Part shown: one piece after another, positions 49,109 to 64,000 of the stretch
Layout: every line of letters starts with the position of its first letter
How positions within the stretch are numbered: the first letter of the stretch is position 1
Source: Deltaproteobacteria bacterium
Lineage (GTDB): Bacteria > Desulfobacterota > Syntrophia > Syntrophales > UBA5619
Direction: 5' to 3'
Assembly (NCBI GenBank): GCA_016935075.1
Contig: JAFGRP010000167.1
Location: forward strand, 6,170 to 70,169
Length of the DNA stretch: 64,000 nt
Notes under the pieces: model-generated
Databases searched by the model: none
Told to the model about the DNA's origin: nothing
Seen by the model: only the letters and a program-made list of their open reading frames with translations
Translations under genes and position numbers: made by a program

Positions 49109-50127
49109 AGATTTTGATCCTGGGGGTTAACGGGTTTATCGGCCATCATCTGACGCAGCGGATCCTCGACGAAACGGACTGGACCGTTTTCGGGATGGAC
49201 CTCTCCGACGACCGTCTGGGGAAGAGCCTGCAGAATCCGCGCTTTCATTTCATTGAAGGGGACATCGCGATCAACCGGGAATGGATCGAATATCACGTCA
49301 AGAAATGCGATATAATTCTGCCCCTGGTGGCGATCGCCACGCCCAAGCTTTATGTGGAAGACCCCATTGCCGTCTACAACCTCGATTTTGAAATGAATCT
49401 CAATGTGATCAATCAGTGCGTCAAATATCACAAGCGGGTCGTTTTTCCTTCAACCTCGGAGGTTTACGGGGCATGCCCCGATCCTGAGTTTAAAGAGGAT
49501 GAGAGTTATCTGGTTGTGGGACCGATCCAGAAGGAACGCTGGATCTATTCCTGCTGCAAACAGCTCCTCGACCGGGTGATTTATGCCTACGGCACACGGG
49601 GGCATCTGGAATTCACCCTTTTCCGGCCCTTCAACTGGGTCGGACCCCGACTGGATTCCCTGTATGCGGCAAAGGAAGGCAGCTCCCGGGTGGTGACGCA
49701 GTTCATCGCCGAGCTTCTGATGAAGAGGCCGATCAGCCTGGTTGACGGCGGCAGCCAGATGCGGTGCTTTACATACGTGGATGACGGCATTGCGGCATTG
49801 TTGCGTATTTTGGAAAACCGCAATGACGCCTGCAAAAATCAGATCATCAATATCGGCAATCCGGACAACGAATGCTCCGTCCGGGAACTGGCCTTTATGC
49901 TGAAGAAGCTCTTCATGGCACATCCGGATCATCTTCAGGACGGGTTCTATTCGGAGATCATCGAGGTCCCCGCACAGACCTATTACGGAAAGGGGTACCA
50001 GGACATCTATACCCGAAAACCGAGCATCGAAAAGGCCCGAATCCTCCTCGGCTGGTCACCGGTCATCGGGCTGGACGATTCCCTGCGGATGACCCTTTAC
50101 TCCTTCCTTGAGGAGAACGGGCCTTGA
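49105..50127 (+). CDS. arnA: UDP-glucuronate oxidative decarboxylase (ArnA C-terminal domain encoded as a separate protein)
   Basis: ILILGVNGFIGHHL Rossmann motif, YSCCK (YxxxK). ATG 49105 overlaps the formyltransferase stop (ATGA). The 65-codon extension from 48910 is rejected. Confidence 0.85.
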   Translation: MKILILGVNGFIGHHLTQRILDETDWTVFGMDLSDDRLGKSLQNPRFHFIEGDIAINREWIEYHVKKCDIILPLVAIATPKLYVEDPIAVYNLDFEMNLNVINQCVKYHKRVVFPSTSEVYGACPDPEFKEDESYLVVGPIQKERWIYSCCKQLLDRVIYAYGTRGHLEFTLFRPFNWVGPRLDSLYAAKEGSSRVVTQFIAELLMKRPISLVDGGSQMRCFTYVDDGIAALLRILENRNDACKNQIINIGNPDNECSVRELAFMLKKLFMAHPDHLQDGFYSEIIEVPAQTYYGKGYQDIYTRKPSIEKARILLGWSPVIGLDDSLRMTLYSFLEENGP

Positions 50128-50154
50128 TCGCAGGACAAGCGATGAGGGGGTGGT

Positions 50155-51015
50155 TTGAACAGGATTCTGGGGCTGAAAATCGATGTGGACACCTATCAGG
50201 GAATGAGACGGGGGGTCCCGCGTCTTCTTTCCCTGTTGAGGCGGGAGGGCCTCCGGGCCACTTTTTTCCTGAGCATCGGGCCGGACGCTTCGGGGAGGGC
50301 CGTTTTTCAGATCTTGAAGAATCCCCGCTTTCTGAAGAAAATGGTCCGGACGCGCGCCGCCGCTCTCTACGGTTTCCGGACCGCCCTGTATGGGACGCTC
50401 CTCCCGTCACCGATGATCGCTCTTTCGTTTCCGCATCTCGTCCGGCAGATTACGGCGGAAGGCCATGAGGTGCAGTTCCATGCGTGGGATCACCGTCGCT
50501 GGCAGGATGAACTCGCTCTCCGTCCGGAGGTCTGGATCCGGGACTGGTTCAGACAGGGCATCGGGGGTTTTGAAAGCCTGACCGGAAGAAGACCCTCCTC
50601 CTTCGGCGCCCCCGCCTGGCTGATCGACGACCGCGTACTTTCCCTGGTTCGCGATCTTCATCTCGATTATCTGAGTTGCACGCGGGCGAAGGAACCCTTT
50701 ATCCATGAAGGAACGGACCTCCTCGAGATCCCGTCGGATCTGCCCTGTTTCGAAGAAACGGGCATTGACGAAGGGGAGCGAAAAATCCTCACCGGGCTTT
50801 CAGATGGCGGGATCCACGTTCTCCCCGTCCATGCGGAAGTCGAAGGCGGACGGATGAGCAATAACTTCCTTCGTCTCATTCACGCCGCGAAAATGCTGGG
50901 TTTTTGTATCATGCCCCTGTGCGACATCCATCCACTTCTGGATCGAAAAAACCTGATGACCAGACGCTTCCGTCTGCAACTCCTCCCAGGTCGCTCCGTC
51001 CCGTGCGCCGTTTGA
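50155..51015 (+). CDS. arnD: 4-deoxy-4-formamido-L-arabinose-phosphoundecaprenol deformylase (polysaccharide deacetylase fold)
   Basis: ILGLKIDVDTYQG...ATFFLSIGPD is typical of ArnD. TTG start with GAGGGGG RBS. Confidence 0.82.
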   Translation: MNRILGLKIDVDTYQGMRRGVPRLLSLLRREGLRATFFLSIGPDASGRAVFQILKNPRFLKKMVRTRAAALYGFRTALYGTLLPSPMIALSFPHLVRQITAEGHEVQFHAWDHRRWQDELALRPEVWIRDWFRQGIGGFESLTGRRPSSFGAPAWLIDDRVLSLVRDLHLDYLSCTRAKEPFIHEGTDLLEIPSDLPCFEETGIDEGERKILTGLSDGGIHVLPVHAEVEGGRMSNNFLRLIHAAKMLGFCIMPLCDIHPLLDRKNLMTRRFRLQLLPGRSVPCAV

Positions 51016-51071: not shown

Positions 51072-51100
51072 TTGACCGCAGAGTCTTCTCATAGTAGTAA
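51072..51100 (+). promoter_or_regulatory. sigma70-like promoter candidate for the ABC importer operon
   Basis: TTGACC (51072-51077), 17-nt spacer, TAGTAA (51095-51100). A near-HutC box GTATAAAC lies at 51151-51158 in the leader. Confidence 0.35.
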
Positions 51101-51191
51101 CGCTCATCAATCCACTGTCTTCGAAATGGCTTTACGATGACCGACTTTTTGTATAAACAGCACCAACATTTTAAATAGGGAGGGCGAGAGT

Positions 51192-52199
51192 ATGAAACGT
51201 GCAGGATTATTGTTCATTGCGGGTATGTTGGTTATGTGTCTGGCGATCAACGCAAGCGCCGCGGAAAAGGTAACAGTCTACACGTCGCTCGAAACGGATG
51301 AAACGGTAAAATATCTCGAGGCGGCCAGAAGGGATTTGCCGGACCTGGAAATCAACATCATCCGTCTCTCCACCGGTGAATTGGGTGCGCGCATGATGGC
51401 CGAAAAGGACAATCCCCAGGCGGACCTTGTCTGGGGTTGGGCCGTGACCAACATGGAAGAATTCGTTCCCCGGGGCATGCTGGTGCCCTACAAACCCAAG
51501 GGTGTGGAAAGACTCGAGAAACGCTTTGTTCACCCCCAGTATTACTACGTGGGAATCGATATGTACATCGCCGCCTTCTGCGTGAATACCAAAGTGATGC
51601 AGGAGAAGGGACTGCCCCTGCCCAAGGGGTGGAACGACCTTCTCGATCCGAGATTCAAGGGCCTCGTGACCATGCCCAACCCGGTGGCTTCCGGCACGGG
51701 ATTCCTCCAGATCGCCAGTATCCTTCAGATGTACGGTGCGAAAGAAGGCAAGGAAGACGGCTGGGAGTTCCTGAAGAAACTGGACAAGAACATCGCACAG
51801 TACATCAAGAGCGGTTCCCGGCCGGCCAAGATGACCGCCGCGGGAGAGTTTGCCGTCGGGGCCTCCTTCGAATTCGTCGTGGCTGAACTGATCAAACAGG
51901 GCTTCCCGGTAAAGTTTGTCTTCCCGATCGAGGGTGCGGGATATGAAGTGGAAGCGAACGCACTGCTCAAGGGGGCAAAAAATCCCAACGCCGCAAAGAG
52001 ATTCCTGGATTGGGCCATCACGGACAACGCCATGAAAGAGTATGCTAAATTCAAACATGGGGTGACCCTTCCCGGGATCCCCTCCCGCCCGGATCTTCCC
52101 AAATTGTCCGAAATCAAGCTCTATCCGATGGACTTCAGCTGGCAGGCCAAGAACAGCGAGGCCATCAAGAAGAAATGGGAGAGCCTCTTCTCAAAATAA
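51192..52199 (+). CDS. ABC transporter periplasmic substrate-binding protein (Fbp/iron(III)/2-aminoethylphosphonate/thiamine-type PBP)
   Basis: Signal peptide then KVTVYTSLETDE...STGELGARMMAEKDNPQADLVWGWA pattern of this SBP class. The substrate cannot be assigned from sequence alone. Confidence 0.8.
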   Translation: MKRAGLLFIAGMLVMCLAINASAAEKVTVYTSLETDETVKYLEAARRDLPDLEINIIRLSTGELGARMMAEKDNPQADLVWGWAVTNMEEFVPRGMLVPYKPKGVERLEKRFVHPQYYYVGIDMYIAAFCVNTKVMQEKGLPLPKGWNDLLDPRFKGLVTMPNPVASGTGFLQIASILQMYGAKEGKEDGWEFLKKLDKNIAQYIKSGSRPAKMTAAGEFAVGASFEFVVAELIKQGFPVKFVFPIEGAGYEVEANALLKGAKNPNAAKRFLDWAITDNAMKEYAKFKHGVTLPGIPSRPDLPKLSEIKLYPMDFSWQAKNSEAIKKKWESLFSK

Positions 52200-52207
52200 C
52201 CGCTAAT

Positions 52208-52259
52208 TTCCGGTCATCCTGCCTTGATGCAGGATGACCGGAATCCATGCTTTTTTTTT
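52208..52259 (+). terminator. 15-bp perfect hairpin plus T9 tract between SBP and ATPase genes (partial terminator or mRNA stabiliser)
   Basis: TTCCGGTCATCCTGC (52208-52222), loop CTTGAT, GCAGGATGACCGGAA (52229-52243), 7 nt, then TTTTTTTTT (52251-52259). Confidence 0.55.
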
Positions 52260-52304
52260 GACCCATTCTGTATAGAACTCTCAACACCCAAGTGAGGAAG
52301 GAAG

Positions 52305-53390
52305 ATGGGCAGAGACCTCAAACTGGAAAATCTTACAAAATGCTACGGGAACCTTACGGCCGTAGATCATGTCAATCTGGAGATCCGGGAAGGGGAGTTT
52401 ATCTGTTTTCTGGGCCCCAGCGGTTGCGGAAAGACAACGATCCTGAGGATGATCACCGGATTTGAGACCGTAACTTCCGGGAGTGTGATCTTCAACAACC
52501 GCGTGATCAACGATCTCATCCCCAAGAAGCGCGAATTCGGCATTGTTTTTCAGTCATACGCCCTTTTTCCGAACATGACCGTTGAGGAGAACATTGCCTT
52601 CGGCCTGAAGATGAGAAAGATGCCGAAAAAGGCCATCGCCGAACGGGTGGACAAGATGCTCGACCTGATCGGTCTTTCCGACTGGCGGAAGCTTTATCCG
52701 GCCCAGTTGAGCGGCGGGCAGCAGCAGCGGGTCGCCCTTGTGAGGGCTCTGGCCCCGGATCCCCAGGTCCTGCTTCTCGATGAGCCTCTGAGCGCCCTCG
52801 ATGCGAAAATCAGGCTCCGCCTCCGGGCGGAGATCAAGCGGTTGCAGCAGGAATTGAAAAAGACGATGATCCATGTGACCCATGATCAGGAAGAGGCCCT
52901 TTCCATCGCCGATCGGGTGGTCGTTATGGAAAAGGGGCAATTCCGGCAGGTGGGACGTCCAATCGACATCTACAAGAATCCGACCTGCAACTTTGTGGCG
53001 GATTTTGTGGGAACTTCCAACTTCTTTGAAGGGCGCCGCACGGCAGACGTCGTCGATATCGGCCGAAGGAGAATCAAGGTGACGCGCAACGGCAACGGGA
53101 AACACGAGGCCGTTTCCCTGGCCATCCGCCCGGAAAATGTGGAGGTGTTCAAAGACGACTCGGTTCCGCAGGTTCTCGAACCCATGAATCTCGTCTCAGG
53201 CCGGATCGAAGTGGTGGTTTTTCAGGGAGCGGCCGTCAGGCTTCTGATCCTTTTGGATGGGGAGGAGATCATCTCCGATATCGTCGAGAAGGATTTTGAA
53301 CAGCGCGCCCTGAAGCAGGGGGATCAGGTATATGTCTACTGTCCGCCCGAATCCTTTCTTGTGTTTCCTGAAAGGGAGGGGACGCAATGA
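52305..53390 (+). CDS. ABC transporter ATP-binding protein with C-terminal TOBE-like domain (PotA/FbpC class)
   Basis: Walker A GPSGCGKTT, signature LSGGQQQRVAL, Walker B LLLDEPLSALD. Confidence 0.9.
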   Translation: MGRDLKLENLTKCYGNLTAVDHVNLEIREGEFICFLGPSGCGKTTILRMITGFETVTSGSVIFNNRVINDLIPKKREFGIVFQSYALFPNMTVEENIAFGLKMRKMPKKAIAERVDKMLDLIGLSDWRKLYPAQLSGGQQQRVALVRALAPDPQVLLLDEPLSALDAKIRLRLRAEIKRLQQELKKTMIHVTHDQEEALSIADRVVVMEKGQFRQVGRPIDIYKNPTCNFVADFVGTSNFFEGRRTADVVDIGRRRIKVTRNGNGKHEAVSLAIRPENVEVFKDDSVPQVLEPMNLVSGRIEVVVFQGAAVRLLILLDGEEIISDIVEKDFEQRALKQGDQVYVYCPPESFLVFPEREGTQ

Positions 53391-55135
53391 ATCCCGTCGA
53401 ACCTTCCGGAAAACGATTCTCCTCGTGGTTCACCGCCGACAACCTCTTCACCGGGGTGATCATGACGTTTCTGCTGGTGATCCTGGCCGTTTTTCTCCTC
53501 TATCCCGTGGTGGACATCTGCCGGTTGAGCTTCATCAAGAACGGGATGTTCAGCCTGCAAAACTATCTCGATTATTTTACCGAACCGAAAATATTCCGCT
53601 CCTTTTACAACAGCATGTTCGTATCATCGGTAACCATGGTCATCACCACGGTGCTGGCATTTCTGTTCGCATACGGTCTTACACGAACCACCATGCCGGG
53701 GAAGGGATTCTTCTATACGGTATCCACATTTCCCCTCATTGCACCGACCATCATCCAGGCCCTGGCTCTTATTTTGCTGTTCGGCCGCAATGGCGTCATC
53801 ACCCGCTATCTCCTGGACACGAGCTGGAATATCTACGGCGCCACGGGCATCATCGTGGGAGAGACCCTCTACTGTTTTCCCAACGCCCTTTTTATCCTTT
53901 ATACCACTCTTTCCGCGGTGGATACGCGCCTCGACGAGGCCGCACAGAGTCTGGGGGCTTCCGCCCTGAAAACCTTTTTCAAGGTGACCCTCCCTTCGGC
54001 GAAGTACGGAATCGCCAGCGCCGCAGCGCTGACTTTCAACCTCACCATCACCGACTTCGGCATCCCGGTCGTGATCGGAGGAGACTATTCCGTTTTGGCG
54101 ACGGAGATCGTCAACAAGGTCTTCGGTATGCAGAGGTTTGACCTGGGGGCGACCATCAGCGTGATTCTCCTGGTTCCCTCCATTACGGCTTTTGCGATCA
54201 ATTATTACCTGACCCGGAAGAGCTATGCCATGATCAGCGGCCAGGCCCGGCCGTTCATCCAGCCTTCACGGCCGTTGAAGAAATGGGCGTTTACCGCTTA
54301 CTCGGGCCTCATCTGCGCCTGCATTCTTCTGGTGTTCATCACGGTTTTTCTGGGCTCCTTCGTCAAGACGTGGCCCTACGATTTTTCACTTACCCTCAAG
54401 CACTTCGACTTCCCGTCGCTCGGGGCGAGCGTCCCGCTATGGACCGCTTTCTGGAACAGCGTTTTGGAGCCGGGCACATTCCGCACCATGATCGCCATCA
54501 AGTACGCCCCCATCTGGACCAGTCTTCTGGTCTCCCTTGTGGTGGCCCTGGCCGGGGCTTCCATCACACTGGTGGCCGCATATATCATCGAAAAGAAAAA
54601 GCCCAGGGGTGAGCAGCTTCTTTACGCCCTGTCGGTTTTGCCGGCGGCCATACCCGGGGTGGTTCTGGGCCTGGGATATGTGCTGGCATTCAACAAGCCC
54701 TATTTTCTGATTTACGGAACAATCTGGATCATCATCATCAATATCGTGATTGCCAACTTCACACTTGGGGTTCTCTCCGGAACGGCGAATCTCAAGCAGA
54801 TCGACAAATCGGTTGAGGAGGCCGCGGTCAGTCTGGGCGCCGGTCCGGTGACCACCTTCACACGGATCGTGTTTCCGCTTTCCAAGGTAGCTTTTCTCTC
54901 CACGACCACCTTCTATTTCATGCGGGCGATGACCACGATCAGCGCCGTGTTATTTCTGGTATCGGCGCAGATCAAACTGGCCGCCATCGAAATCATCTTC
55001 CTCGATGTGGATGGCCGTACGGCGAGCGCCAATGCCATGTGTACCGTAGTCGTGCTGATCGTCGCCCTTTTCCTGATCGTCATGAGGATCACCACGGGAA
55101 GTTCAGGGCTTACGGGGATGAGCGGTAGAAAATGA
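53387..55135 (+). CDS. ABC transporter permease, fused two-domain (FbpB/PhnU2-like, 582 aa)
   Basis: Two tandem 6-TM BPD-type permease modules. 4-nt overlap with the ATPase gene. Confidence 0.85.
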   Translation: MNPVEPSGKRFSSWFTADNLFTGVIMTFLLVILAVFLLYPVVDICRLSFIKNGMFSLQNYLDYFTEPKIFRSFYNSMFVSSVTMVITTVLAFLFAYGLTRTTMPGKGFFYTVSTFPLIAPTIIQALALILLFGRNGVITRYLLDTSWNIYGATGIIVGETLYCFPNALFILYTTLSAVDTRLDEAAQSLGASALKTFFKVTLPSAKYGIASAAALTFNLTITDFGIPVVIGGDYSVLATEIVNKVFGMQRFDLGATISVILLVPSITAFAINYYLTRKSYAMISGQARPFIQPSRPLKKWAFTAYSGLICACILLVFITVFLGSFVKTWPYDFSLTLKHFDFPSLGASVPLWTAFWNSVLEPGTFRTMIAIKYAPIWTSLLVSLVVALAGASITLVAAYIIEKKKPRGEQLLYALSVLPAAIPGVVLGLGYVLAFNKPYFLIYGTIWIIIINIVIANFTLGVLSGTANLKQIDKSVEEAAVSLGAGPVTTFTRIVFPLSKVAFLSTTTFYFMRAMTTISAVLFLVSAQIKLAAIEIIFLDVDGRTASANAMCTVVVLIVALFLIVMRITTGSSGLTGMSGRK

Positions 55136-55151
55136 CAGGGGGTTTAAGAAC

Positions 55152-55922
55152 ATGAACGTCATCGATCCGGACAATCCCATTCCCAAGTATCTGCAGATCA
55201 GCGCCTGGATCAAGGATCTCATCCAATCCGGAAGGTACGAGAAGGGCGCCAATCTGCCGTCAGAGGTCGAACTGGCCAGAATCTGTCAGGTAAACCGGAA
55301 TACCCTGAGGCAGGCCATATCGGAATTGACGGCGTCGGGAGTGCTTCGCAAGGAAAAGGGGAGAGGCACCTTCGTCTGTGCGGATACCCCCCTGGCCATC
55401 ACACACCAGCTCAAGAGCATTTCGAGCTTCAGCGCCGACCTGTGTGCGCTCGGAATCAGGGAGAAAACAAAAATCATCAAGAAGGGTGTTGAGGAAGCCA
55501 ATGAACGGGTAGCCAGGAAGCTGATCTTAAGCCCGAACGGCAAAGTGGTGGCCATCCGCCGTCTCCGGACCGGCAACCAGGTGCCTTTTATCTACGAGGA
55601 AAGCTATCTGCCCCACTCCCTTTTCCGCGAAATCCTGGATATGGATCTGACCGGGTCCATGTACCAGATCATTAACGATCGCTTCAACGTCACCCTGGCA
55701 CGGTCGGATCAGATGATCCGGTCGGTGAATCTAAAAGGCCGCATTGCATCCTATCTGAATGTCCCCGAAAATACGGCGGCCTTTTTCATGGAAAGTCTGA
55801 CCTACGACGAAAACAACCTGCCGGTGGAGCTTCTCTATTCCTATTACCGGGGAGACAAATACGTTTTTGAGGTTGAAGTGGGTCGTTACCATATCAAGGA
55901 AAATTATTTGCAGGATGAATGA
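55152..55922 (+). CDS. GntR-family transcriptional regulator, HutC/PhnF subfamily (wHTH + UTRA effector domain)
   Basis: N-terminal PKYLQISAWIKDLI...LPSEVELARICQVNRNTLRQAISEL wHTH. About 170-aa C-terminal UTRA-sized domain. Confidence 0.85.
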   Translation: MNVIDPDNPIPKYLQISAWIKDLIQSGRYEKGANLPSEVELARICQVNRNTLRQAISELTASGVLRKEKGRGTFVCADTPLAITHQLKSISSFSADLCALGIREKTKIIKKGVEEANERVARKLILSPNGKVVAIRRLRTGNQVPFIYEESYLPHSLFREILDMDLTGSMYQIINDRFNVTLARSDQMIRSVNLKGRIASYLNVPENTAAFFMESLTYDENNLPVELLYSYYRGDKYVFEVEVGRYHIKENYLQDE

Positions 55923-56002
55923 CCCCGCATCAGGCTGCAAGGCATAAAAAATACGAAGAGAACATTTTCCGCAGCCGGCTGCAGGGAATTATCAATTTAC
56001 AC

Positions 56003-56034
56003 TTGATTTTTTAAGGACGATCATGTATATACAT
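56003..56034 (+). promoter_or_regulatory. promoter with overlapping 12-bp palindrome (candidate HutC-type operator)
   Basis: TTGATT (56003-56008), 17-nt spacer, TATATA (56026-56031). Perfect palindrome ATGTATATACAT (56023-56034) whose core GTATATAC fits the GT-M-TA-K-AC HutC-subfamily consensus as I recall it. Confidence 0.4.
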
Positions 56035-56075
56035 CTAAACAGCATAGTGCCATTAACGCGTAAAGAGGGGGAAAT

Positions 56076-57275
56076 ATGAATGAGAATAACTTGTTGGAAA
56101 AATTGGTCGCGGTCAGTCCCGGTATGGAGATCTGGTGGGATTCCTCACCTGTGATCTTCGAAAACTGGTGCCGGAAGCTGTTGGCCAAGGCAAGCGACGG
56201 GGAACGGGAAACCCTGAATCGGCAGTTCGCACGGATGGTCGACAAAGAAAACCCGGAGATATCGCTTTTCCGCGGCGTGACGACCAACCCTTCATTATCT
56301 CTGCAGGCAATCCAGGACAACGAGCCGTATTGGAAAGACGTAACCTACTGTATTATCAAGAATAATCCCGGCATAGACAAAGAATCCCTATTCTGGCTTC
56401 TCTATAAGGAAGTGGTAAAACGTGGCTCAGATATGTTCCTTCCGTTGTTTGAGAAAACAAACCATCGCGAAGGTTACCTCTCGGGCCAGGTGGATCCGCG
56501 AAAATCCTTCGACAAGGAGACCATGCTGAAGCAGGCCGCGGAACTGGCCGCCATCAATCCCAATGTGATGATCAAGGTTCCGGGCACAAAGGAGGGGTAT
56601 GAGGTCATCGAAATTCTCACCTCCCGGGGAATTGCCACCAACAATACACTAACTTTCGTCCTGCCGCAATTGATGGACTGTGCCAAATCCGTGAAGCGGG
56701 GGTTGGAAAAGGCCAAGGCGAACCGGGTGGATCTTTCCAGGTGGCGCTCCGTGATCACCCACATGGAGGCACGTTACGGCGATCTGGGAGGATTAAGGGA
56801 TTTCGGAAAGGAAAAAGGGATCGAGCTTTCCGAGGGGGATGTCCGCCTGGCGGAACTGGCCATCTTCAAGAAGGCCTATCGTCTTGTTAAAGAAGGCAAT
56901 TATCCCAGCAAGATGCTCTCCTGTTCACTCCGGGTCGGACCGAACGTGGAGGGAGTCCGGCGGATCTGGCATCTGGAGGAGAAGGCGGGCGCAAACATTG
57001 TGGTCACCTGTCCCCCCGCTTTTATCGATGAGGTGATCCATTTCCAGGGACAGGAAAACATCTCTTTTGAAAAAAACCGTATTGACCGGGATATTCCGAA
57101 AGAGACGCTGGATAAACTGCTGCGGATACCGTATTTCGAAAAGGCGTACGCAGAAGACGGCTATACCCGGGATGAGTACAACAGTCACCCATCGCTGGTA
57201 AAGACGGCACAGCAGTTTTCGAAAGCCACAAACGACATGGTGGAATTTGCGGAAAAATGTCTCGCAGATTCATGA
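56076..57275 (+). CDS. transaldolase-family protein (long form, 399 aa)
   Basis: GVTTNPSL motif and Schiff-base lysine context NVMIKVPGT. First gene of a six-gene operon. Confidence 0.8.
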   Translation: MNENNLLEKLVAVSPGMEIWWDSSPVIFENWCRKLLAKASDGERETLNRQFARMVDKENPEISLFRGVTTNPSLSLQAIQDNEPYWKDVTYCIIKNNPGIDKESLFWLLYKEVVKRGSDMFLPLFEKTNHREGYLSGQVDPRKSFDKETMLKQAAELAAINPNVMIKVPGTKEGYEVIEILTSRGIATNNTLTFVLPQLMDCAKSVKRGLEKAKANRVDLSRWRSVITHMEARYGDLGGLRDFGKEKGIELSEGDVRLAELAIFKKAYRLVKEGNYPSKMLSCSLRVGPNVEGVRRIWHLEEKAGANIVVTCPPAFIDEVIHFQGQENISFEKNRIDRDIPKETLDKLLRIPYFEKAYAEDGYTRDEYNSHPSLVKTAQQFSKATNDMVEFAEKCLADS

Positions 57276-57299
57276 CGTAAACGATGAAAGGAGAGATTT

Positions 57300-58394
57300 A
57301 TGAAACAGTTGAATGAATGGTTTGTGCCCTGGTTGTTCACCGCACGGGAATACAACACCGCGATACTCGATAAAGCCTGGGCAAAGCCCGATTATGGTCG
57401 CCTGATGCTCAATGAAAATCCTCTCCCCCCGTCCGATAAAGTAATCCGGGCGGTGACGGATATCCTTTCCAGAGGGAACCGCTATCCAGACAGCATGCTG
57501 CGGTTGCGGACCAAACTCGGAAAGCTGCACAACCTGGGACCGGAAAATATCGGCCTGTGCAACGGATCATCGGAGATTATCGATTGCATGATGCGGATCT
57601 TCCTCCAGCCCGGCGACGAGTTCATCGTCTCCACGCCCACTTTCGAGCTTTTTCCGCCTCGGGCGGAACTGGCCGGAGGCAAGGTGGTCTCCGTGCCGCT
57701 TCGCAAAGAGGATCTCCAGTACGATGTGGATGCCATGATCGAGGCGATCACACCCAAGACCAAACTGATTCTGGTCATCAATCCCAATAATCCGACAGGA
57801 ATCTTCATTGACGACAAGGATTTAATCCGCTTCTGCGAGACGGGGATTCCTTTATGCATCGACGAGGCCTATCTGGACTACCATCCCGAGATCCCGTCGA
57901 AGGATTTTCTGCTCAAGAAGTATCCCCAGGTCTTCCTCTCCCACACCTTTTCGAAGGCCTACGGCTTCGCCGGTATCCGTTTCGGTTATGTGGTGGGGAC
58001 GGAGGAGATGGTCAAGGCATTCAGAGCCATGTTCCTCCCCTGGAATGTGAGCCTGATGTCCATGGCGGCGGCGGAGGCGATCCTGGACAGCCCGGAGGAT
58101 GTTGCCGAGAAGGTGAAGCACAACAACCGCTGGATGGAGATCTTCACCAAAGAACTGGTCCAGGTCGGCCTGAAGCCCTTCCCGGCGCACGGCAATTACA
58201 TGCTCATCGACGCCACAATGACCGGTAAGACAACCGCCGAGATCCTGGCGGCCGGGCTGGAGATGGAGAGGATATTCCTCAAAAGCATCAAGCCGATCCA
58301 TGGCAGGGACGGTTATTTCCGGGTGACGCCGGGTGTGGACGAGGAGAACGAACGGTTCGTCCGATTTGTCCGGAACTATTTCGGCAAGAAATGA
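57300..58394 (+). CDS. PLP-dependent aminotransferase, histidinol-phosphate aminotransferase (HisC/CobD) family
   Basis: LNENP motif, NPNNPTG, PLP-lysine segment SHTFSKAYGFAGIRFGY. The context argues against a housekeeping hisC role. Confidence 0.8.
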   Translation: MKQLNEWFVPWLFTAREYNTAILDKAWAKPDYGRLMLNENPLPPSDKVIRAVTDILSRGNRYPDSMLRLRTKLGKLHNLGPENIGLCNGSSEIIDCMMRIFLQPGDEFIVSTPTFELFPPRAELAGGKVVSVPLRKEDLQYDVDAMIEAITPKTKLILVINPNNPTGIFIDDKDLIRFCETGIPLCIDEAYLDYHPEIPSKDFLLKKYPQVFLSHTFSKAYGFAGIRFGYVVGTEEMVKAFRAMFLPWNVSLMSMAAAEAILDSPEDVAEKVKHNNRWMEIFTKELVQVGLKPFPAHGNYMLIDATMTGKTTAEILAAGLEMERIFLKSIKPIHGRDGYFRVTPGVDEENERFVRFVRNYFGKK

Positions 58395-59167
58395 CGTTGA
58401 AGATCTTCGTATGTGTCAAGCATGTCCCCGACACGGCGGCCAACATCAGGCCTCTGGACGGGACGGCCTTTGACGAAACCGTCAAGTTCATCATGAATCC
58501 CTACGATGAATATGCCCTGGAACAGGCCCTCCAGATCCGGGACCGGGAGGGCGCATCCGAGGTGATAGCGGTTACGGTCGGAAAGGCGTCTGCCGGCGCC
58601 ACGCTGCGTTCCGCCCTGGCCATGGGCGCGGACCGGGGGGTTCTGGTCAAAACGGACACCTACTTTATGGACAGCCTGGAGACAAGCCGTCTGCTGCATA
58701 TTGCGATCGAACTGGACGGTTCCCCCGGTCTGATCTTTACCGGCAAACAATCGGTGGATACGGAAGGGATGCAGGTACCCTTTCGTCTGGCGGCCCTGTT
58801 CGATCTGCCTGTTGTGGTCGATGTTGCGGCCTTTTCACTGGCCAATGGTGTGGTCACCGTCGAGCGGGAAATGGAGGGGGATGTGCGCGAGGTGATCGAT
58901 ATGTCCATTCCCTGCATCGTCGGCGCCGCCAAGGGGCTGAACCGGCCGCGTTGTCCCACCCTTCCGGACATGATGAAGGCCCGGAAGAAAGAGGTCAAGG
59001 TCCTCAACCGGTCTGATTTCCAGATTCAAGAACCCCTGCAAACGGTGGAGCTGCTGGAATTCCAGCCGGTCCCCGACCGGGGTCGGGGAAGGATTCTGAA
59101 AGGCAGTCCGGAAAACATGGCGGATGAGCTTCTGCGCCTGTTGCGGGACGAGGCGAAAGTATTATAG
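58391..59167 (+). CDS. etfB: electron transfer flavoprotein beta subunit
   Basis: MTLKIFVCVKHVPDT...NPYDEYALEQAL is typical of EtfB. ATGA overlap with the aminotransferase stop. Confidence 0.9.
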   Translation: MTLKIFVCVKHVPDTAANIRPLDGTAFDETVKFIMNPYDEYALEQALQIRDREGASEVIAVTVGKASAGATLRSALAMGADRGVLVKTDTYFMDSLETSRLLHIAIELDGSPGLIFTGKQSVDTEGMQVPFRLAALFDLPVVVDVAAFSLANGVVTVEREMEGDVREVIDMSIPCIVGAAKGLNRPRCPTLPDMMKARKKEVKVLNRSDFQIQEPLQTVELLEFQPVPDRGRGRILKGSPENMADELLRLLRDEAKVL

Positions 59168-59184
59168 GGGCGGGTTCGGGGTCT

Positions 59185-60141
59185 ATGGCGAGGATCGGCG
59201 TTCTCATCGAAGAGAAGGACGGCAAGGTCAAGAGGACCAATCTCGGCGCGTTGACCGCTGCAAGACAGGGTTCCGTCGACAACGAGGTTTATGCACTGCT
59301 GTTTGGCGACCACGCAGAGACCTGCCGGGAAGCATTGCAGCGTTACGGTGCGGAAAAGATCGTAGCCATCCGGACGCCGGAACCTGATCCGTCGGCGTTC
59401 CCGGAGATGCAGGCTGCCGCCCTCTGTCTCGCGATGGACGCATTTTTGCTGGATGCGCTCCTCGGGGTTGCCGGCCAGTACGGAAAGGACATGCTGGCCC
59501 GGGTGGCCTCGCTGAAAGGGGCGCCTCTGGTCCTGGACTGTCTGGAAATCGATTTTTCCTCCGGCATCGTCAAGAAATCCCATTTTTCCGGAAAGACGAC
59601 GGCAACACTCCGTCTGAACGGCCGGCCCTGGATTTTGGGAATCAGACCCAATATCTTCCCCGAACTTGCGGATCCCCGGAATGCCGAAATCCTGAATTAC
59701 GAGCCGCGGATCCAGGAGGCAAAACGGCTGGCGATCCGGGAAATCAAACACGGCGGCTCAGGAGGGCCGGATGTTTCCGAAGCCGAAATCATCATTTCCG
59801 GCGGACGTCCACTCGGATCCGGGGAGAACTTTAAAATCCTGAGAGACTGCGCCGCAGTTTTCGGGGCGGCGGTCGGGGCTTCCCGGGCCGCGGTGGATGC
59901 CGGCTTCGCGACCCATGCAATGCAGGTGGGCCAGACGGGTAAAACGGTCAGTCCCCGGCTCTACATCGCCTGCGGCATATCCGGATCCGTTCAACATTTC
60001 GCGGGTATGAAAACATCCAAGATTATCGTCGCCATCAACAATGATGCCGATGCGCCCATTTTCAGCAAATGCGATTACGGCCTGATCGGCGATCTTTTTA
60101 AAGTGGTGCCCGCCTTGACAAAGGCGCTGGGGAAGGGGTGA
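59185..60141 (+). CDS. etfA: electron transfer flavoprotein alpha subunit
   Basis: C-terminal FAD signature YIACGISGSVQHFAGM. 318 aa with no N-terminal ferredoxin domain. Confidence 0.9.
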   Translation: MARIGVLIEEKDGKVKRTNLGALTAARQGSVDNEVYALLFGDHAETCREALQRYGAEKIVAIRTPEPDPSAFPEMQAAALCLAMDAFLLDALLGVAGQYGKDMLARVASLKGAPLVLDCLEIDFSSGIVKKSHFSGKTTATLRLNGRPWILGIRPNIFPELADPRNAEILNYEPRIQEAKRLAIREIKHGGSGGPDVSEAEIIISGGRPLGSGENFKILRDCAAVFGAAVGASRAAVDAGFATHAMQVGQTGKTVSPRLYIACGISGSVQHFAGMKTSKIIVAINNDADAPIFSKCDYGLIGDLFKVVPALTKALGKG

Positions 60142-60144
60142 ATC

Positions 60145-62565
60145 ATGCGCGAAAGTGCACAGGTTGTCATCATCGGCGGCGGCATCGTCGGGTGCAGCAT
60201 TGCTTACCATCTCACCAAACGGGGGTTGAAGGATGTGATCATCCTTGAAAAGGGAGAACTGACCAGCGGATCGACATGGCACGCGGCAGGCCTGGTGGGA
60301 CAGCTTCGCTCGCACCGCAACGTCACGAGGATGCTTCAGTACAGTGTCAGCCTCTACGAGACGCTGGAAGCGGAAACCGGCCTCACGACCGGCTGGAAGC
60401 GCTGCGGATGTCTCCATCTGGCCGGTACGGAAGACCGGCTTTTTGAGCTGAAGAAAGGGGCAACCACGGCGCGCAGCTTCGGTCTTGAGATGCACATGAT
60501 TTCGCCGCAGGAGGCGCTGAAGATCTTTCCGATATTGGATATGGACGGCATCATCGGCGCGGCTTTCATGCCCTCCGACGGCCAGGCGGATCCCAGCGGA
60601 CTGACCATGGCCCTGGCCAAAGGGGCGATGAACCGCGGCGCCACGGTGGAGCAGAAGACACTGGTCACCGGTTTTCAGATCAAAGACAACCGCATTCAGG
60701 CCGTGGCAACCGACCGGGGAACGATCCGCTGCGAGACGGTCGTCAACGCGGCGGGCATGTGGGGCCGGGAGATCGGCCGCATGATGGGCGTGAACATCCC
60801 GCTGGTTCCTTTTCAGCATCAGTACCTGGTGACCGAAGCCATCGAGGGCCTGCCGCCCAATCTCCCCACCCTGCGCGACAAGGACAGCCTCCTCTATTAC
60901 AAGGAAGAGGTCGGGGGGCTCGTCATGGGCGGTTACGAACGGGACGGAATCCCCTGGTCCATCCACGGAATTCCCAAGGGATTCACCCAGGAACTGCTGG
61001 AGCCGGATTTCGACCACTTCGAGCCGATTTCCAGCGCTGCCATGAAACGCACCCCTTGCCTGAATCAAGCCGGCATTGCGCGCCTGGTCAACGGACCGGA
61101 GGCCTTTACACCCGACGGCAACTGCATCCTGGGCCCGGCGCCCGAGCTGGAAAACTGCTTTGTCGCCGTGGGATTCAATGCCTTCGGCATCGCCGCCGGC
61201 GGAGGGGCCGGACGGATGGTCGCCGAATGGATCGTGGACGGCGAACCCAGCCTCAACATCTGGCCTCTGGATATCCGACGCTTCGGCCGGCACCATCGGA
61301 GCGTCAGGTATAACGTCGAAAGGACCCGCGAACTCTACGGCAAGCATTACACCATCTCCTGGCCTTATGAAGAACATGACTCGGCCCGGGGGGTCAAACG
61401 ATCCCCCCTGTATTGGCCGCTCAAGGAAAAGGGGGCCGTTTATGGTTCGAAATTCGGATGGGAGAGGGCAAACTGGTTCGCCCCGCCCGGCGTGCTGCCC
61501 CAGGATTCCCCCACCTTCGGTATTCCCCATTGGTTTGAACACGTGGCTGCGGAGCATCGCGCGGCGCGCGAATCGGTGGTGCTTATCGACCAGTCCTCGT
61601 TCAGCAAGTTCGAGGTGGCCGGATCCGGCGCCCTGAGTTTCCTGAATCGCATCGCGGCAAATAATGTAGACAGGCCCGTAGGTTCGACTGTTTATACCCA
61701 GCTCTGCAACGAACGGGGTGGAATCGAGGCGGATATCACCCTGTCAAGGGTGGCGGAAAACCGGTTCTTCATCATCACGGGCACGGCCTTCGGCGTGCAC
61801 GATTTCATGTGGCTCAAAAAACATCTGCCGAAGGACGGCTCCGTCGCGCTGCGCGATGTAACCTCCTCCTTTGCGATGATTAACGTCTGTGGGCCCCTTT
61901 CACGGAAACTCCTCATGCGCGTCTCCGACGATGACTTCAGCAACGAAGGATTCGCCTTCGGTCAGTGTCGGGAGGTTGTGGTCGACTATGCCCCGGTCCT
62001 GGCCCTGCGGGTCACCTACATCGGCGAACTGGGATACGAGCTTTATATGCCGCCGGAATATTCCGCCGGACTCTATGAGAGCCTATGGAAAAACGGTCAT
62101 GATCTGGGTATCCGCAATGCCGGATACCGGGCGATCGACTCCCTCCGGCTGGAGAAAAGCTACCGCTACTGGGGCGCAGAGGTTTCGCCGGACTACAGTC
62201 CCTACGACGCCGGGATCGGTTTCGCCGTGAATCTCGACAAGGGCCCCTTCATTGGGCGTGAGGCACTCCTGAAGATCAGGAAGGAGGGATCACCCTGGAA
62301 GCTCTGCACCTTCACCCTGGATGCCGACCGTCCGATGCTCCTTCACGGAGGGGAAACCATCACCTGCAGGGGCAAGGTGGTTGGCGTAGTCTCCAGCGGC
62401 GGTTATGGCCACTTTGTGCGAAAGACCATCGCCCTGGGTTATCTGTCCGCTTCCGACGCACAGGAGACCGACGGATTTGCGATCGAGGTGTACCGGGAGG
62501 CGATTCCGGCCACACGGCTTTTGAAGGCTCCCTACGATCCGGAACGCAAGAAGATTTTCCTTTAG
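60145..62565 (+). CDS. FAD-dependent dimethylglycine/sarcosine dehydrogenase-like oxidoreductase with C-terminal GcvT (folate-binding aminomethyltransferase) domain
   Basis: VVIIGGGIVGCSIAYHL dinucleotide motif. GSTWHAAGL, the covalent-flavin His context of DMGDH/SARDH. 806 aa with a GcvT-like C-terminal half. Confidence 0.85.
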   Translation: MRESAQVVIIGGGIVGCSIAYHLTKRGLKDVIILEKGELTSGSTWHAAGLVGQLRSHRNVTRMLQYSVSLYETLEAETGLTTGWKRCGCLHLAGTEDRLFELKKGATTARSFGLEMHMISPQEALKIFPILDMDGIIGAAFMPSDGQADPSGLTMALAKGAMNRGATVEQKTLVTGFQIKDNRIQAVATDRGTIRCETVVNAAGMWGREIGRMMGVNIPLVPFQHQYLVTEAIEGLPPNLPTLRDKDSLLYYKEEVGGLVMGGYERDGIPWSIHGIPKGFTQELLEPDFDHFEPISSAAMKRTPCLNQAGIARLVNGPEAFTPDGNCILGPAPELENCFVAVGFNAFGIAAGGGAGRMVAEWIVDGEPSLNIWPLDIRRFGRHHRSVRYNVERTRELYGKHYTISWPYEEHDSARGVKRSPLYWPLKEKGAVYGSKFGWERANWFAPPGVLPQDSPTFGIPHWFEHVAAEHRAARESVVLIDQSSFSKFEVAGSGALSFLNRIAANNVDRPVGSTVYTQLCNERGGIEADITLSRVAENRFFIITGTAFGVHDFMWLKKHLPKDGSVALRDVTSSFAMINVCGPLSRKLLMRVSDDDFSNEGFAFGQCREVVVDYAPVLALRVTYIGELGYELYMPPEYSAGLYESLWKNGHDLGIRNAGYRAIDSLRLEKSYRYWGAEVSPDYSPYDAGIGFAVNLDKGPFIGREALLKIRKEGSPWKLCTFTLDADRPMLLHGGETITCRGKVVGVVSSGGYGHFVRKTIALGYLSASDAQETDGFAIEVYREAIPATRLLKAPYDPERKKIFL

Positions 62566-62580
62566 GTTGGGGACGACAAG

Positions 62581-63336
62581 ATGCAAAAGGATATCCTTCG
62601 GCAATACCGGCAATTCCTGAAGGACAACATCCGCAAGGCGTTCGATTTTTCACGGACGGACCAGAGCCGCGGGATACCGCCGCCGCCGGTCGAGAAACCC
62701 TATCGCAAGGATGCCGTACGGCTGAACCTTCCCCCCTTCGGGGAAATCGGGAAAATGGATCTTCCCTCCGCAATCGGCAGGCGGGAGAGCCGCCGCTCCT
62801 ACGGCTCCGAGCCGCTTTCACTCGAGGAATTGTCATTTCTCCTGTGGGCCACGCAGGGAATAAGGCAAAAACTCGACCCGGGTCACGCGTTGCGGACGGT
62901 TCCCTCGGCCGGCTGCCGCCATGCACTGGAAACCTATCTCTGCATCCTGAAGGTGCGGGGACTCGACGCGGGCATCTACCGTTACCTTCCATTGGAACAT
63001 CAACTGCTGTTTGAATCCGACGAAGAAGATCTCCATCGGAGGATCGTCCGGGCCGTTCTCGGCCAGCCCTATCCCGCGGAGGCAGCCGTTACCTTCATCT
63101 GGACGGCCGTTCCCTACCGTATGGAATGGCGCTACGGCCCGGCCGCGCACAAGGTGATCGCTCTGGATGCAGGACACGTCTGCCAGAATCTCTATCTGGC
63201 CTGTGAAGCAATCGGCGCAGGAACCTGCGCGATGGCCGCCTATGACCAGGAGGTGATCGACCGGCTGATCCGGATCGACGGGGAGGAGGAGTTCACGATT
63301 TACCTGGCTTCCGTCGGGAAAAACCCCGACAAATAA
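62581..63336 (+). CDS. SagB/ThcOx-type nitroreductase-family dehydrogenase
   Basis: RRSYGSEPLSLEELSFLLWATQG, VPSAGCRHALETY and LDAGHVCQNLYLA patterns of the SagB-type nitroreductase fold. Confidence 0.75.
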   Translation: MQKDILRQYRQFLKDNIRKAFDFSRTDQSRGIPPPPVEKPYRKDAVRLNLPPFGEIGKMDLPSAIGRRESRRSYGSEPLSLEELSFLLWATQGIRQKLDPGHALRTVPSAGCRHALETYLCILKVRGLDAGIYRYLPLEHQLLFESDEEDLHRRIVRAVLGQPYPAEAAVTFIWTAVPYRMEWRYGPAAHKVIALDAGHVCQNLYLACEAIGAGTCAMAAYDQEVIDRLIRIDGEEEFTIYLASVGKNPDK

Positions 63337-63404: not shown

Positions 63405-64000
63405 TTGTTGAACAACGCGCATTGCGGCAAAATCCGACCCCTGACAATCGCCGCCCTGATATGGCTTTGTACACTGCCGGTTTCCCTCCAGGCTGACGAT
63501 GCCCGCATCGAAGAGATCATCGACAGCCCCACGGTGAGCTATCAGAAGGCGTTCGTCGTCGATACGACTCCGAAGATGTGGAACAGGGTCCTGGACCATC
63601 TCTACCTCATAGGGCGGCTCTGGGAAATATACCGCTTCCAACCCGCCTATCAGGTGACCCGGACGGGTTCAGGTATCCATGTCGTCGATCCGTCGGGCAT
63701 CATCGGCGACGTCCGGCAGGTGGGGCGATCGGAATTTTCCCGGTTTTTTAAAGGACGGGCAGAGTTCAACCACTGGGCGGTGCCTTCCTTTTTTACCGCC
63801 GATTATGTAATTATATTCGAGTACGCGGCGGAGCGAAACAGGCTCCGTGGAGAGGTGAAAATATTCATGTTGGGAAACAACTGGCTCTCAAGAATCGCCA
63901 TGAAACTCTTTCCCGGCACCCTCATCCGTCACATCGACAATCGTTTCATACACAATCTGGAGGATCTGAAGAAAATCATCCGGGATATCGACGACGAACC
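63405..64000 (+). CDS. hypothetical secreted protein, 3' end cut by window edge
   Basis: Open frame from TTG 63405 (in-frame TGA at 63402) to the window end. It is absent from the ORF track because it has no stop. Signal-peptide-like KIRPLTIAALIWLCTLPVSLQA. I recognise no family. Confidence 0.5.
   Translation, partial: MLNNAHCGKIRPLTIAALIWLCTLPVSLQADDARIEEIIDSPTVSYQKAFVVDTTPKMWNRVLDHLYLIGRLWEIYRFQPAYQVTRTGSGIHVVDPSGIIGDVRQVGRSEFSRFFKGRAEFNHWAVPSFFTADYVIIFEYAAERNRLRGEVKIFMLGNNWLSRIAMKLFPGTLIRHIDNRFIHNLEDLKKIIRDIDDE

Follow-up and report, generated by a model that had tools for sequence, protein, structure and literature searches.

A cluster of ten genes, all on the + strand, occupies positions 51192-63336 of a 64,000-nucleotide stretch of contig JAFGRP010000167.1 from a deltaproteobacterium of the order Syntrophales (the whole stretch is called the window here, and position 1 is its first letter). 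The cluster consists of two adjacent units, one for an ABC importer and its putative regulator and one for a transaldolase-like (Tal-like) protein, a HisC-like aminotransferase and a flavoenzyme module. A sequence-only reading of this DNA had proposed a catabolic system for an N-methylated amino compound and had counted eleven genes from position 51072; a recheck of the open reading frames (ORFs) gave ten. The TTG at 51072 is in frame with the first gene and meets a TGA at 51138, and the true start is the ATG at 51192, which is preceded by a ribosome-binding site (GGGAGGG). Profile searches bore out the assigned gene identities and the co-directional two-unit order for all ten ORFs, and the spacings of 24, -4, 17, 3 and 15 nt within the second unit were reproduced exactly.

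Unit 1 (51192-55922) encodes the substrate-binding protein (SBP) of an organophosphate/phosphonate-type ABC importer (51192-52199; SBP_bac_6/8, with an N-terminal signal peptide), the ABC ATPase (52305-53390; ABC_tran and TOBE_2), a fused two-domain permease (53387-55135; two BPD_transp_1 stretches), whose gene overlaps that of the ATPase by 4 nt, and a GntR/HutC-family regulator with a UTRA effector domain (55152-55922; GntR 60 bits, UTRA 122 bits). Unit 2 (56076-63336) encodes the Tal-like protein (56076-57275; 399 amino acids, PF00923), the HisC-like class I/II aminotransferase (57300-58394), the electron-transfer flavoprotein (ETF) subunits EtfB (58391-59167; ETF, PF01012), which shares an ATGA overlap with the HisC-like gene, and EtfA (59185-60141; ETF and ETF_alpha), a dimethylglycine dehydrogenase (DMGDH)-like flavoenzyme (60145-62565; 806 amino acids with DAO, FAO_M, GCV_T and GCV_T_C domains) and a SagB-type nitroreductase-fold protein (62581-63336; TIGR03605, 115 bits against a cut-off of 78). 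A HutC-type operator-like site, TGTATAAACA (51150-51159, +), lies 42 nt 5' of the SBP start codon, and a perfect palindromic operator, TGTATATACA (56024-56033, +), lies 52 nt 5' of the Tal-like start codon, abutted by a promoter-like site (TTTACA-17-GATCAT), the two together spanning 55996-56033 (+). A terminator scan found no + strand terminator-like site between the operon genes; two + strand hits fell inside coding sequence, below chance level. No riboswitch or other RNA element was found within the operon by an Rfam scan, the sole matches in the window being two tRNA genes at 18181-18254 (+) and 27175-27248 (-).

Conservation was assessed over 80 genome loci that encode the Tal-like protein, scanned with a panel of query proteins; these loci are phylogenetically related, and the counts given here overstate their independence. 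The closest loci belong to metagenome-assembled genomes (MAGs) of Syntrophales and Syntrophaceae, whose proteins are as much as 91% identical. In 67 of the 80 loci, drawn from Syntrophales, Desulfobacterales and Thermoleophilia, the Tal-like gene directly neighbours the HisC-like gene, at 60-94% identity; several of the others are truncated contigs. Next in frequency are the GntR/UTRA regulator (42 loci), a transketolase (38 loci; TIGR00232, 879 bits, above the cut-off), an alanine dehydrogenase (27 loci; TIGR00518, 521 bits, above the cut-off), a choline/ethanolamine-kinase family protein (16 loci; PF01633, 105 bits), an ABC importer of the window type (16 loci), the DMGDH-like protein (13 loci) and EtfA/EtfB (10-13 loci). 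On these neighbour counts the conserved core is the Tal-like and HisC-like pair, which is kept in three phyla, contrary to the possibility raised at the outset that the genes do not stay together in related genomes. The nine-gene block from the SBP to the DMGDH-like gene is kept in Syntrophales loci L001-L014 and L095 and is rearranged in one Desulfobacterales MAG (L055). Of the block whose recurrence the sequence-only reading had suggested checking (tal, hisC-like, etfBA, DAO-GcvT and SagB), SagB is not a conserved member, its gene occurring in only one of the 80 loci (L010). The typical Desulfobacterales order has TRAP transporter genes on the opposite strand, followed by kinase, transketolase, GntR, Tal-like, alanine dehydrogenase and HisC-like genes. 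In Thermoleophilia, a DeoR regulator, Tal-like, HisC-like and transketolase genes are found with APC permeases, kinases, a metallophosphoesterase and a nucleotidyltransferase-like (NTase-like) protein.

The regulator has a GntR helix-turn-helix and a UTRA domain, resembles PhnF and PhnR in NCBIfam profiles and is accompanied by palindromic operators in both promoter regions, as in the HutC subfamily, whose operator consensus is a GT-n-TA-n-AC palindrome. Within the 64-kb window the pattern TGTATAWACA occurs only at 51150 and 56024, with 0.04 occurrences expected, a post hoc count since the pattern was defined after inspection of both promoter regions; the independent loci are the real test. 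Among the Syntrophales loci that carry the operon's HisC-like gene (L001-L015 and L018), the motif TGTATATACATC lies 46-52 nt 5' of the Tal-like gene in 13 of 14. The form TGT[AC]TATACATC, which in Syntrophales sits some 50 nt upstream of the Tal-like gene, precedes the transketolase and GntR genes in Desulfobacterales and occupies the divergent region between the TRAP-binding-protein and kinase genes. Across the comparison set the operator is present in 34 of the 42 loci that bear the GntR gene, with 71 of 76 matches in such loci falling within these promoter regions (perfect palindromes can count twice), and it is nearly absent where the GntR gene is missing, most such loci being Thermoleophilia with a DeoR regulator. 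This distribution makes the transporter, kinase, transketolase, Tal-like, alanine dehydrogenase and HisC-like genes the predicted targets of one repressor, and in the window the GntR/HutC protein is the predicted regulator of both units.

The Tal-like protein is a very divergent member of the family of transaldolase and fructose-6-phosphate aldolase (FSA) (PF00923, 116.6 bits against a gathering cut-off of 27), its best solved match being the transaldolase 3R5E (74 bits), and has about 28-30% identity to any solved transaldolase. It reached no NCBIfam transaldolase cut-off: the best model, NF002881, scored 105 against 367 bits, and the FSA model TIGR00875 scored 51 against 246 bits. The residues Lys167 (in MIKVPGT), Asp22 (WWDS), T69-T70-N71-P72, Ser284 and Arg286 are conserved and invariant in 11 members. 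The references for these comparisons were TalB, FSA and B. subtilis Tal, together with a computed alignment with 3R5E. Gln138 takes the place of a Glu present in every solved transaldolase that was aligned, 3R5E and 7BBW among them, which we take to be the catalytic acid/base (Glu96 of TalB). The Gln is found at this position in nearly all of 50 more distant relatives and extends through a broad clade that comprises 117 clusters (50% identity, E < 1e-30). Phe194 sits at the position of the catalytic Tyr of FSA (Tyr131), and an equivalent of FSA Gln59 is present. The protein thus has neither the Glu of the classical TalB-type mechanism nor the Tyr and Gln combination of FSA. Identity is 70-90% across the three phyla. 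The predicted reaction is the transfer of dihydroxyacetone from fructose 6-phosphate or sedoheptulose 7-phosphate to glycolaldehyde 2-phosphate, yielding xylulose 5-phosphate. Stand-alone copies, 77-81% identical and lacking both the operator and a HisC-like neighbour, are found in three loci (L013:4696-5901, L016:10001-11200 and L017:4349-5554); those of L013 and L017 share the LptFG neighbourhood of the window, and that of L016 lies 3' of a GlcD-like FAD oxidase and a CCG Fe-S protein and 5' of a GntR/UTRA gene. These copies may be housekeeping or differently wired paralogues. Four more distant relatives (P0124, P0125, P0131 and P0137; 37-46% identity) lie on short contigs or in unrelated contexts and were uninformative.

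The HisC-like protein belongs to subfamily I-beta of the pyridoxal-phosphate (PLP) aminotransferases and scores 251.7 bits with the histidinol-phosphate aminotransferase-type model TIGR01141, below the equivalog cut-off of 276.55; the model of the decarboxylase CobD scores 146 bits. Aligned with E. coli HisC, it keeps the PLP contacts (Lys219, Asp188, Tyr191 and Arg227) as well as Arg341 and an Asn equivalent to E. coli Arg335 and Asn157, with Lys328 replacing E. coli Arg322. This Arg/Asn site binds the phosphate of histidinol phosphate in HisC and the carboxylate in aromatic aminotransferases (PMC4703992). The imidazole pocket, in contrast to the PLP and phosphate sites, is altered at Asp85 (to Ser), Tyr110 (to Phe) and Tyr243 (to Trp; E. 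coli numbering), and the three replacements are invariant in 11 members. The residue roles are those described for the M. tuberculosis tetrad of Asn103, Tyr127, Met129 and Tyr261 (PMC4703992), mapped by us onto the E. coli numbering; the comparison covered the three E. coli positions. Phosphoethanolamine is histidinol phosphate minus its imidazolylmethyl side chain. The altered pocket would fit the aminoethyl-phosphate part of histidinol phosphate without the side chain, and may fit a small amino acid too. The predicted reaction is that of phosphoethanolamine with pyruvate or 2-oxoglutarate to give glycolaldehyde 2-phosphate.

The profile check suggested for the importer (TIGR03261, TIGR03262 and TIGR03265) was run. 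These 2-aminoethylphosphonate (AEP) transport models are the best NCBIfam matches, yet all three proteins score below the equivalog cut-offs (SBP, TIGR03261, 331 against 393 bits; ATPase, TIGR03265, 435 against 458 bits; permease, TIGR03262, 496 against 593 bits). As the sequence-only reading had observed, the locus holds no phnW, phnX, phnY or phnA and no genes of the sulfoquinovose or betaine pathways. The closest solved structures to the SBP are 4R72 (142 bits), annotated as an Fe3+-type ABC substrate-binding protein and presumably the sugar-phosphate-binding AfuA, and 6WCE (126 bits), a pyridoxal-phosphate-binding protein that is its nearest structural relative with a named ligand. These relatives suggest that the SBP lies in an organophosphate-binding clade.

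The sister regulons gave further clues to the substrate. The TRAP binding protein of one of them (L059:3556-4605) matches PDB entry 4UAB with E = 1.1e-138, the next match being at 1e-19. Entry 4UAB is Csal_0678 with bound ethanolamine (PMC12410723). The Phaeobacter homologue EtoX binds ethanolamine with a Kd of 7.9 uM and leaves phosphoethanolamine and phosphocholine unbound; the match of the TRAP protein, which belongs to the sister loci and not to the window, lies beyond the e-60 cut-off used for EtoX homology (PMC10132767). The kinase paired with this TRAP transporter is of the choline/ethanolamine kinase family. One Thermoleophilia permease is assigned to the amino acid permease subfamily TIGR00907, which we take to be an amino acid/choline transporter family. 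The ethanolamine transporter and kinase of the sister regulons narrow the substrate to phosphoethanolamine-type compounds. The 16 loci with the ABC importer and the 16 with the kinase do not overlap at all (Fisher p = 0.03, uncorrected for phylogeny), and no locus combines the ABC importer with a TRAP or APC transporter. Because importer and kinase are mutually exclusive, phosphoethanolamine would be the shared intermediate, reached either by import of the phosphate ester or by import and phosphorylation of the alcohol. Phosphoethanolamine and its N-methyl forms are the predicted ligands of the window's SBP.

The DMGDH-like protein is a full-length homologue of the rat and human DMGDH structures (588 bits) and contains the motif STWH46AAG. 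It has the DAO, FAO_M, GCV_T and GCV_T_C architecture of dimethylglycine and sarcosine dehydrogenases, with EtfBA encoded directly upstream. Judged from this architecture and its neighbours, it is a predicted FAD- and folate-dependent N-demethylase of N-methyl- and N,N-dimethyl-phosphoethanolamine. Besides the Syntrophales order, the DMGDH-like gene joins the Tal-like and HisC-like pair in L050, L055, L068/L077/L098 and L069/L130. EtfBA is kept with it in Syntrophales, L077 and L098, and a membrane CCG/4Fe-4S oxidoreductase, which likely re-oxidises ETF, adjoins it in L068, L077, L097 and L098. MttB-superfamily methyltransferases, distant members of the family with 73% mutual identity, adjoin it in two further loci (L069:8518-9795 and L096:6003-7298) and are candidates for the demethylation of a quaternary amine such as choline or phosphocholine. 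On general enzymology, quaternary amines should be beyond a flavin amine dehydrogenase, and an MttB-type enzyme would take that step. The combined context is consistent with a pathway that removes methyl groups from choline-type amines one after another until (phospho)ethanolamine remains. Distant DMGDH paralogues in L112 and L119 neighbour APC permease, phosphoesterase, NTase-like, DeoR, APH kinase, transketolase and HisC-like genes. Since three loci with the ABC importer lack a DMGDH-like gene (L018, L047 and L053), the demethylase/ETF module is an accessory addition and not part of the core. In a metagenome scan that started from the DMGDH alignment, generic N-terminal patterns picked up mainly ordinary members of the DMGDH family; nine loci at 63% identity or above and a few at 48-51% were informative.

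SagB is probably a passenger or a lineage-specific addition. The context expected of a SagB/TOMM azoline dehydrogenase system, with a YcaO cyclodehydratase and a precursor peptide close by, was not seen, the flanking genes being the DMGDH-like gene and an ORF without a Pfam match (from 63405), and short precursor-peptide ORFs were not searched for. That ORF (63405-64000, +) runs off the end of the window and has a signal-peptide-like N-terminus, as of an exported protein. In L008 and L014 the position of SagB, 3' of the DMGDH-like gene, is taken by a second Fbp/PhnS2-like ABC system (about 16860-21000; 33-44% identity).

We consider the odds about even that the locus encodes, under repressor control, the catabolism of phospholipid head groups of the phosphoethanolamine type, N-methyl forms included. 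Computation established the protein families, the synteny, the shared operator, TRAP orthology to an ethanolamine-binding protein, importer/kinase exclusivity and the active-site changes. In the proposed scheme the PhnS2/AfuA-like ABC importer would bring in phosphoethanolamine along with the N-methyl and N,N-dimethyl forms, and, the substrate being imported already phosphorylated, the window version would need no kinase. The DMGDH-like enzyme would strip the N-methyl groups, passing the C1 units to tetrahydrofolate (as methylene-tetrahydrofolate) and the electrons to EtfAB. The HisC-like enzyme would then convert phosphoethanolamine and a 2-oxo acid into glycolaldehyde 2-phosphate and an amino acid, the acceptor being pyruvate in the lineages with alanine dehydrogenase. 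From glycolaldehyde 2-phosphate and fructose 6-phosphate or sedoheptulose 7-phosphate, the Tal-like enzyme would form D-xylulose 5-phosphate together with glyceraldehyde 3-phosphate or erythrose 4-phosphate; the 3S,4R stereochemistry of transaldolase would yield exactly D-xylulose 5-phosphate. Transketolase and the remaining pentose phosphate pathway would rebalance the sugar-phosphate pools, and the GntR/UTRA repressor would bind the TGTATAWACA sites before both units. All substrates and products of the scheme, its flux direction and the repressor's effector are inferences.

The main argument for this scheme is that it uses each enzyme of the TRAP/kinase regulon (kinase, aminotransferase, alanine dehydrogenase, Tal-like protein and transketolase) once, leaves no gap and needs no other enzyme. 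Comparative genomics supports the outline of the sequence-only reading, namely import, ETF-linked demethylation, transamination and a Tal-like step, through the pair in 67 of 80 loci, the DMGDH linkage in at least four gene orders and the common HutC-type operator on both units; its inclusion of SagB did not hold, and the demethylase/ETF module moves to an accessory role. With a probability slightly short of even, we propose more broadly an undescribed B12-independent route common to Syntrophales and Desulfobacterales (anaerobic, from sediment and peat) and Thermoleophilia, in which ethanolamine, N-methylethanolamines and perhaps choline would pass through phosphoethanolamine and glycolaldehyde 2-phosphate to xylulose 5-phosphate via a Gln-type transaldolase. 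Full-text literature searches returned no account of the proposed route, and nothing relevant on a phosphoethanolamine aminotransferase, a glycolaldehyde-phosphate metabolite, an ethanolamine kinase combined with transaldolase or transketolase, or a B12-independent ethanolamine route. All the parts come from known families in an ordinary repressor-controlled operon, and there is a substantial chance of a truly new pathway.

Several points weigh against this proposal. The relatedness of the 80 loci affects both the neighbour counts and the Fisher test for importer/kinase exclusivity. The window holds no homologue of the transketolase, the alanine dehydrogenase, the kinase, MttB or the membrane Fe-S oxidoreductase. 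We know of no natural pathway in which glycolaldehyde 2-phosphate is a free metabolite. The Gln at the Glu position and the Phe at the position of the FSA Tyr make the chemistry of the Tal-like enzyme uncertain, and the operator-free stand-alone copies indicate that it may also be an ordinary transaldolase. In the HisC-like enzyme, the residues that would bind phosphate are the carboxylate binders of aromatic aminotransferases, Phe115 corresponds to the aromatic-aminotransferase state, and the best PDB match is the M. tuberculosis aromatic aminotransferase. Finally, the DMGDH-like enzyme could be a true dimethylglycine or sarcosine dehydrogenase.

This last point leads to a different pathway, in which a genuine dimethylglycine/sarcosine dehydrogenase would produce glycine and the HisC-like protein would be a glycine or small amino acid:pyruvate aminotransferase that forms glyoxylate. 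The 588-bit match to mammalian DMGDH agrees with it, the methyltransferases of the MttB family beside it in L069 and L096 could make dimethylglycine from glycine betaine, and the aromatic-aminotransferase-like pocket of the HisC-like protein, with its carboxylate-binding Arg, bulky Trp and room for no more than a small side chain, would suit such a substrate. The kinase, the ethanolamine TRAP transporter and the organophosphate-type SBP would, however, be left without a role, 67 of the 80 Tal/HisC-like loci lack a DMGDH-like gene, and glyoxylate is not known as an acceptor by which transaldolase or transketolase reaches a central metabolite; we regard this pathway as improbable. A somewhat better, still small, chance belongs to another small phosphorylated or anionic amine, such as alaninol, serinol or aminopropanol phosphate, or N-methyltaurine or taurine, handled by the same logic of demethylation, transamination and C-C bond formation. 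Choline-kinase/APH-family kinases phosphorylate many alcohols, the APH kinases of L069 and L112 weakly resemble type II homoserine kinase, and entry 4XF5 has the same sequence as 4UAB; we take Csal_0678 to have been crystallised with an amino-propanol as well. Serinol phosphate would nevertheless lead to dihydroxyacetone phosphate and aminopropanediol phosphate to glyceraldehyde 3-phosphate, neither of which needs transaldolase or transketolase, and the C-S bond of a sulfonate product or the C-P bond of a phosphonate product would remain, with no enzyme present to cleave it. Of the candidates weighed here, the C2-phosphate aldehyde alone becomes a normal sugar phosphate via transaldolase, and ethanolamine is by far the most abundant. 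Phosphonates bring the importer back into question, as a variant system for AEP or N-methyl-AEP would account for the best NCBIfam models (PhnS2, PhnT2 and PhnU2) and the PhnF/PhnR-like regulator. Against it stand the three transporter scores below the equivalog cut-offs, the absence at the locus of phnW, phnX, phnY, phnA or another C-P-cleaving enzyme, and the exchange of the ABC importer for an ethanolamine transporter and kinase in sister loci, which would be senseless for a phosphonate, and we consider it very improbable.

Two other explanations keep phosphoethanolamine and change its fate, and to each we give the same quite low probability. If the HisC-like protein were a phosphoethanolamine phospho-lyase (ETNPPL-like), the products would be acetaldehyde, ammonium and phosphate, and the Tal-like protein and transketolase would merely adjust sugar-phosphate pools. 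Kinase and phospho-lyase pairs act on amino alcohols in mycobacteria and mammals, and the HisC family does have a non-transaminase member in CobD, but in 27 loci an alanine dehydrogenase gene separates the Tal-like gene from the HisC-like one, which suggests that the latter encodes a pyruvate/alanine transaminase, the Tal-like and transketolase genes carry the same operator as the transporter and kinase genes, and no acetaldehyde dehydrogenase is linked. Alternatively, the core reactions, all of which are reversible, could run in the anabolic direction to make or salvage phosphoethanolamine from pentose phosphates for cell-envelope modification, as might be read from the lipid A modification operon directly upstream in the window and from the NTase-like and phosphoesterase genes that accompany the Thermoleophilia cluster. 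HutC/UTRA and DeoR repressors with importers are instead typical of catabolism, as are the ETF-linked oxidative demethylase and alanine dehydrogenase, and outside Syntrophales the cluster is not accompanied by the upstream operon. Least probable of all is that a housekeeping transaldolase and hisC came to lie beside a DMGDH/ETF pair and a transporter by chance. The stand-alone Tal-like copies beside LptFG in L013 and L017, in the same neighbourhood as in the window, could be taken that way, but the pair is kept across three phyla under a common operator, both enzymes score below housekeeping equivalog cut-offs and the HisC-like protein lacks the imidazole pocket.

The upstream operon (44357-51015, +) comprises six arn-like genes (arnT/arnB/arnC/arnA/arnD, with arnA split into formyltransferase and epimerase/dehydratase genes), whose content suggests lipid A aminoarabinose modification unrelated to the catabolic units. 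It also adjoins the cluster in Syntrophales loci (c24, c28-c30). Further upstream (39570-44174) lie genes for S-adenosylhomocysteine hydrolase (+), LptF and LptG (-) and an enoyl-CoA hydratase (-). Other genes were noted beside the cluster in the related loci. A paralogue of 1-deoxy-D-xylulose 5-phosphate (DXP) reductoisomerase, 40% identical to the window's own dxr (about 2829-3980), is encoded divergently from the regulon GntR gene in L069 (3880-5193, -) and also in L020 and L021; we take the retro-aldol/aldol mechanism of DXP reductoisomerase to involve a glycolaldehyde-phosphate fragment, and the neighbour is suggestive. A trio of APC permease, metallophosphoesterase and NTase-like protein (c37, no confident Pfam match) was observed in L032, L065, L071, L072, L078, L105, L112 and L137, with example coordinates L076:3885-4886 and L076:7879-8667. 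It accompanies kinase/Tal-like/HisC-like/transketolase clusters and DMGDH paralogues and might process a phosphodiester or CDP-linked head group. In L081 (7029-12301), a run of D-amino-acid genes lies 3' of the Desulfobacterales Tal-like, alanine dehydrogenase and HisC-like genes and is kept in several loci (c16, c18, c19, c32 and c33); it encodes a class IV aminotransferase, an alanine racemase, a CapA-like protein, an Asp/Glu racemase, a D-Ala-D-Ala-ligase-like protein and an N-formylglutamate-amidohydrolase-like protein.

In peat, digesters and anoxic sediments, much carbon, nitrogen and phosphorus resides in the head group of phosphatidylethanolamine, the chief lipid of bacterial membranes. 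Ethanolamine is known to be used through the Eut microcompartment, which needs B12, through EtoX-linked gamma-glutamylation and subsequent dehydrogenase steps, by amine oxidases and by the animal kinase/phospho-lyase pair; to our knowledge none of these combines a transaminase with a transaldolase. If the phosphoethanolamine scheme is true, it would explain the use of head groups by abundant uncultured Syntrophales, Desulfobacterales and Thermoleophilia and would make glycolaldehyde 2-phosphate a new intermediate of central metabolism. It would also give a function to a large transaldolase clade with a non-canonical catalytic residue and a substrate class to the DMGDH-like enzyme of strict anaerobes, and the enzymes would be of interest for synthetic C2 assimilation.

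Among known systems, the Eut microcompartment, with its B12-dependent ethanolamine ammonia-lyase, likewise degrades ethanolamine-derived head groups in anaerobes. EutBC, shell proteins and acetaldehyde dehydrogenase were absent from the operon and from the annotated neighbours of the panel genes, not all neighbours in the related loci having been screened. Unlike Eut, the proposed route is predicted to work without B12, and carbon would enter as a sugar phosphate and not as acetyl-CoA. The EtoXVW/Csal_0678 systems of Chromohalobacter, Agrobacterium and Phaeobacter share with the Desulfobacterales sister regulons an orthologous ethanolamine-binding TRAP protein, and in both the nutrient is phospholipid head groups (PMC10132767). 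The EtoX system proceeds by gamma-glutamylation and oxidation to glycine, whereas the sister regulons have a kinase, an aminotransferase, a Tal-like protein and a transketolase, and the window would import the already phosphorylated form through its ABC importer.

AEP catabolism (PhnW, PhnX and PhnS2T2U2) has a related transporter family and repressor type and likewise transaminates a 2-aminoethyl-phosphorus compound to an aldehyde with pyruvate and alanine. PhnW is a class V aminotransferase; the window's enzyme is HisC-type (class I/II), its predicted substrate is a phosphate ester, no C-P hydrolase is present and the aldehyde would be condensed instead of hydrolysed. The pairing of aminotransferase and alanine dehydrogenase also has a precedent in taurine:pyruvate aminotransferase. 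In the sulfo-transaldolase and sulfo-transketolase sulfoquinovose pathways, transaldolase or transketolase paralogues act on a non-canonical anionic C2 or C3 aldehyde; here the direction would be opposite, the aldehyde serving as the acceptor that is built into a pentose phosphate, and there is no sulfonate chemistry. Transaldolase B and FSA belong to the same fold family as the Tal-like protein, which keeps their Schiff-base Lys, Asp, TTNP motif and Ser/Arg phosphate site. The Tal-like protein differs from both in its mixed signature, with Gln, as in FSA, at the position of Glu96 and Phe, as in transaldolase, at that of Tyr131/Phe178, and in its length of about 400 amino acids with extra C-terminal segments. 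Mitochondrial and bacterial DMGDH and sarcosine dehydrogenase share the four-domain architecture, the STWHAAG motif, the folate-binding domain and the adjacent EtfBA with the window's flavoenzyme. For the latter, in contrast, the gene context predicts an N-methyl amino-alcohol phosphate instead of an N-methyl amino acid; its host is a strict anaerobe, and in related loci the electrons likely pass to a membrane CCG/Fe-S oxidoreductase.

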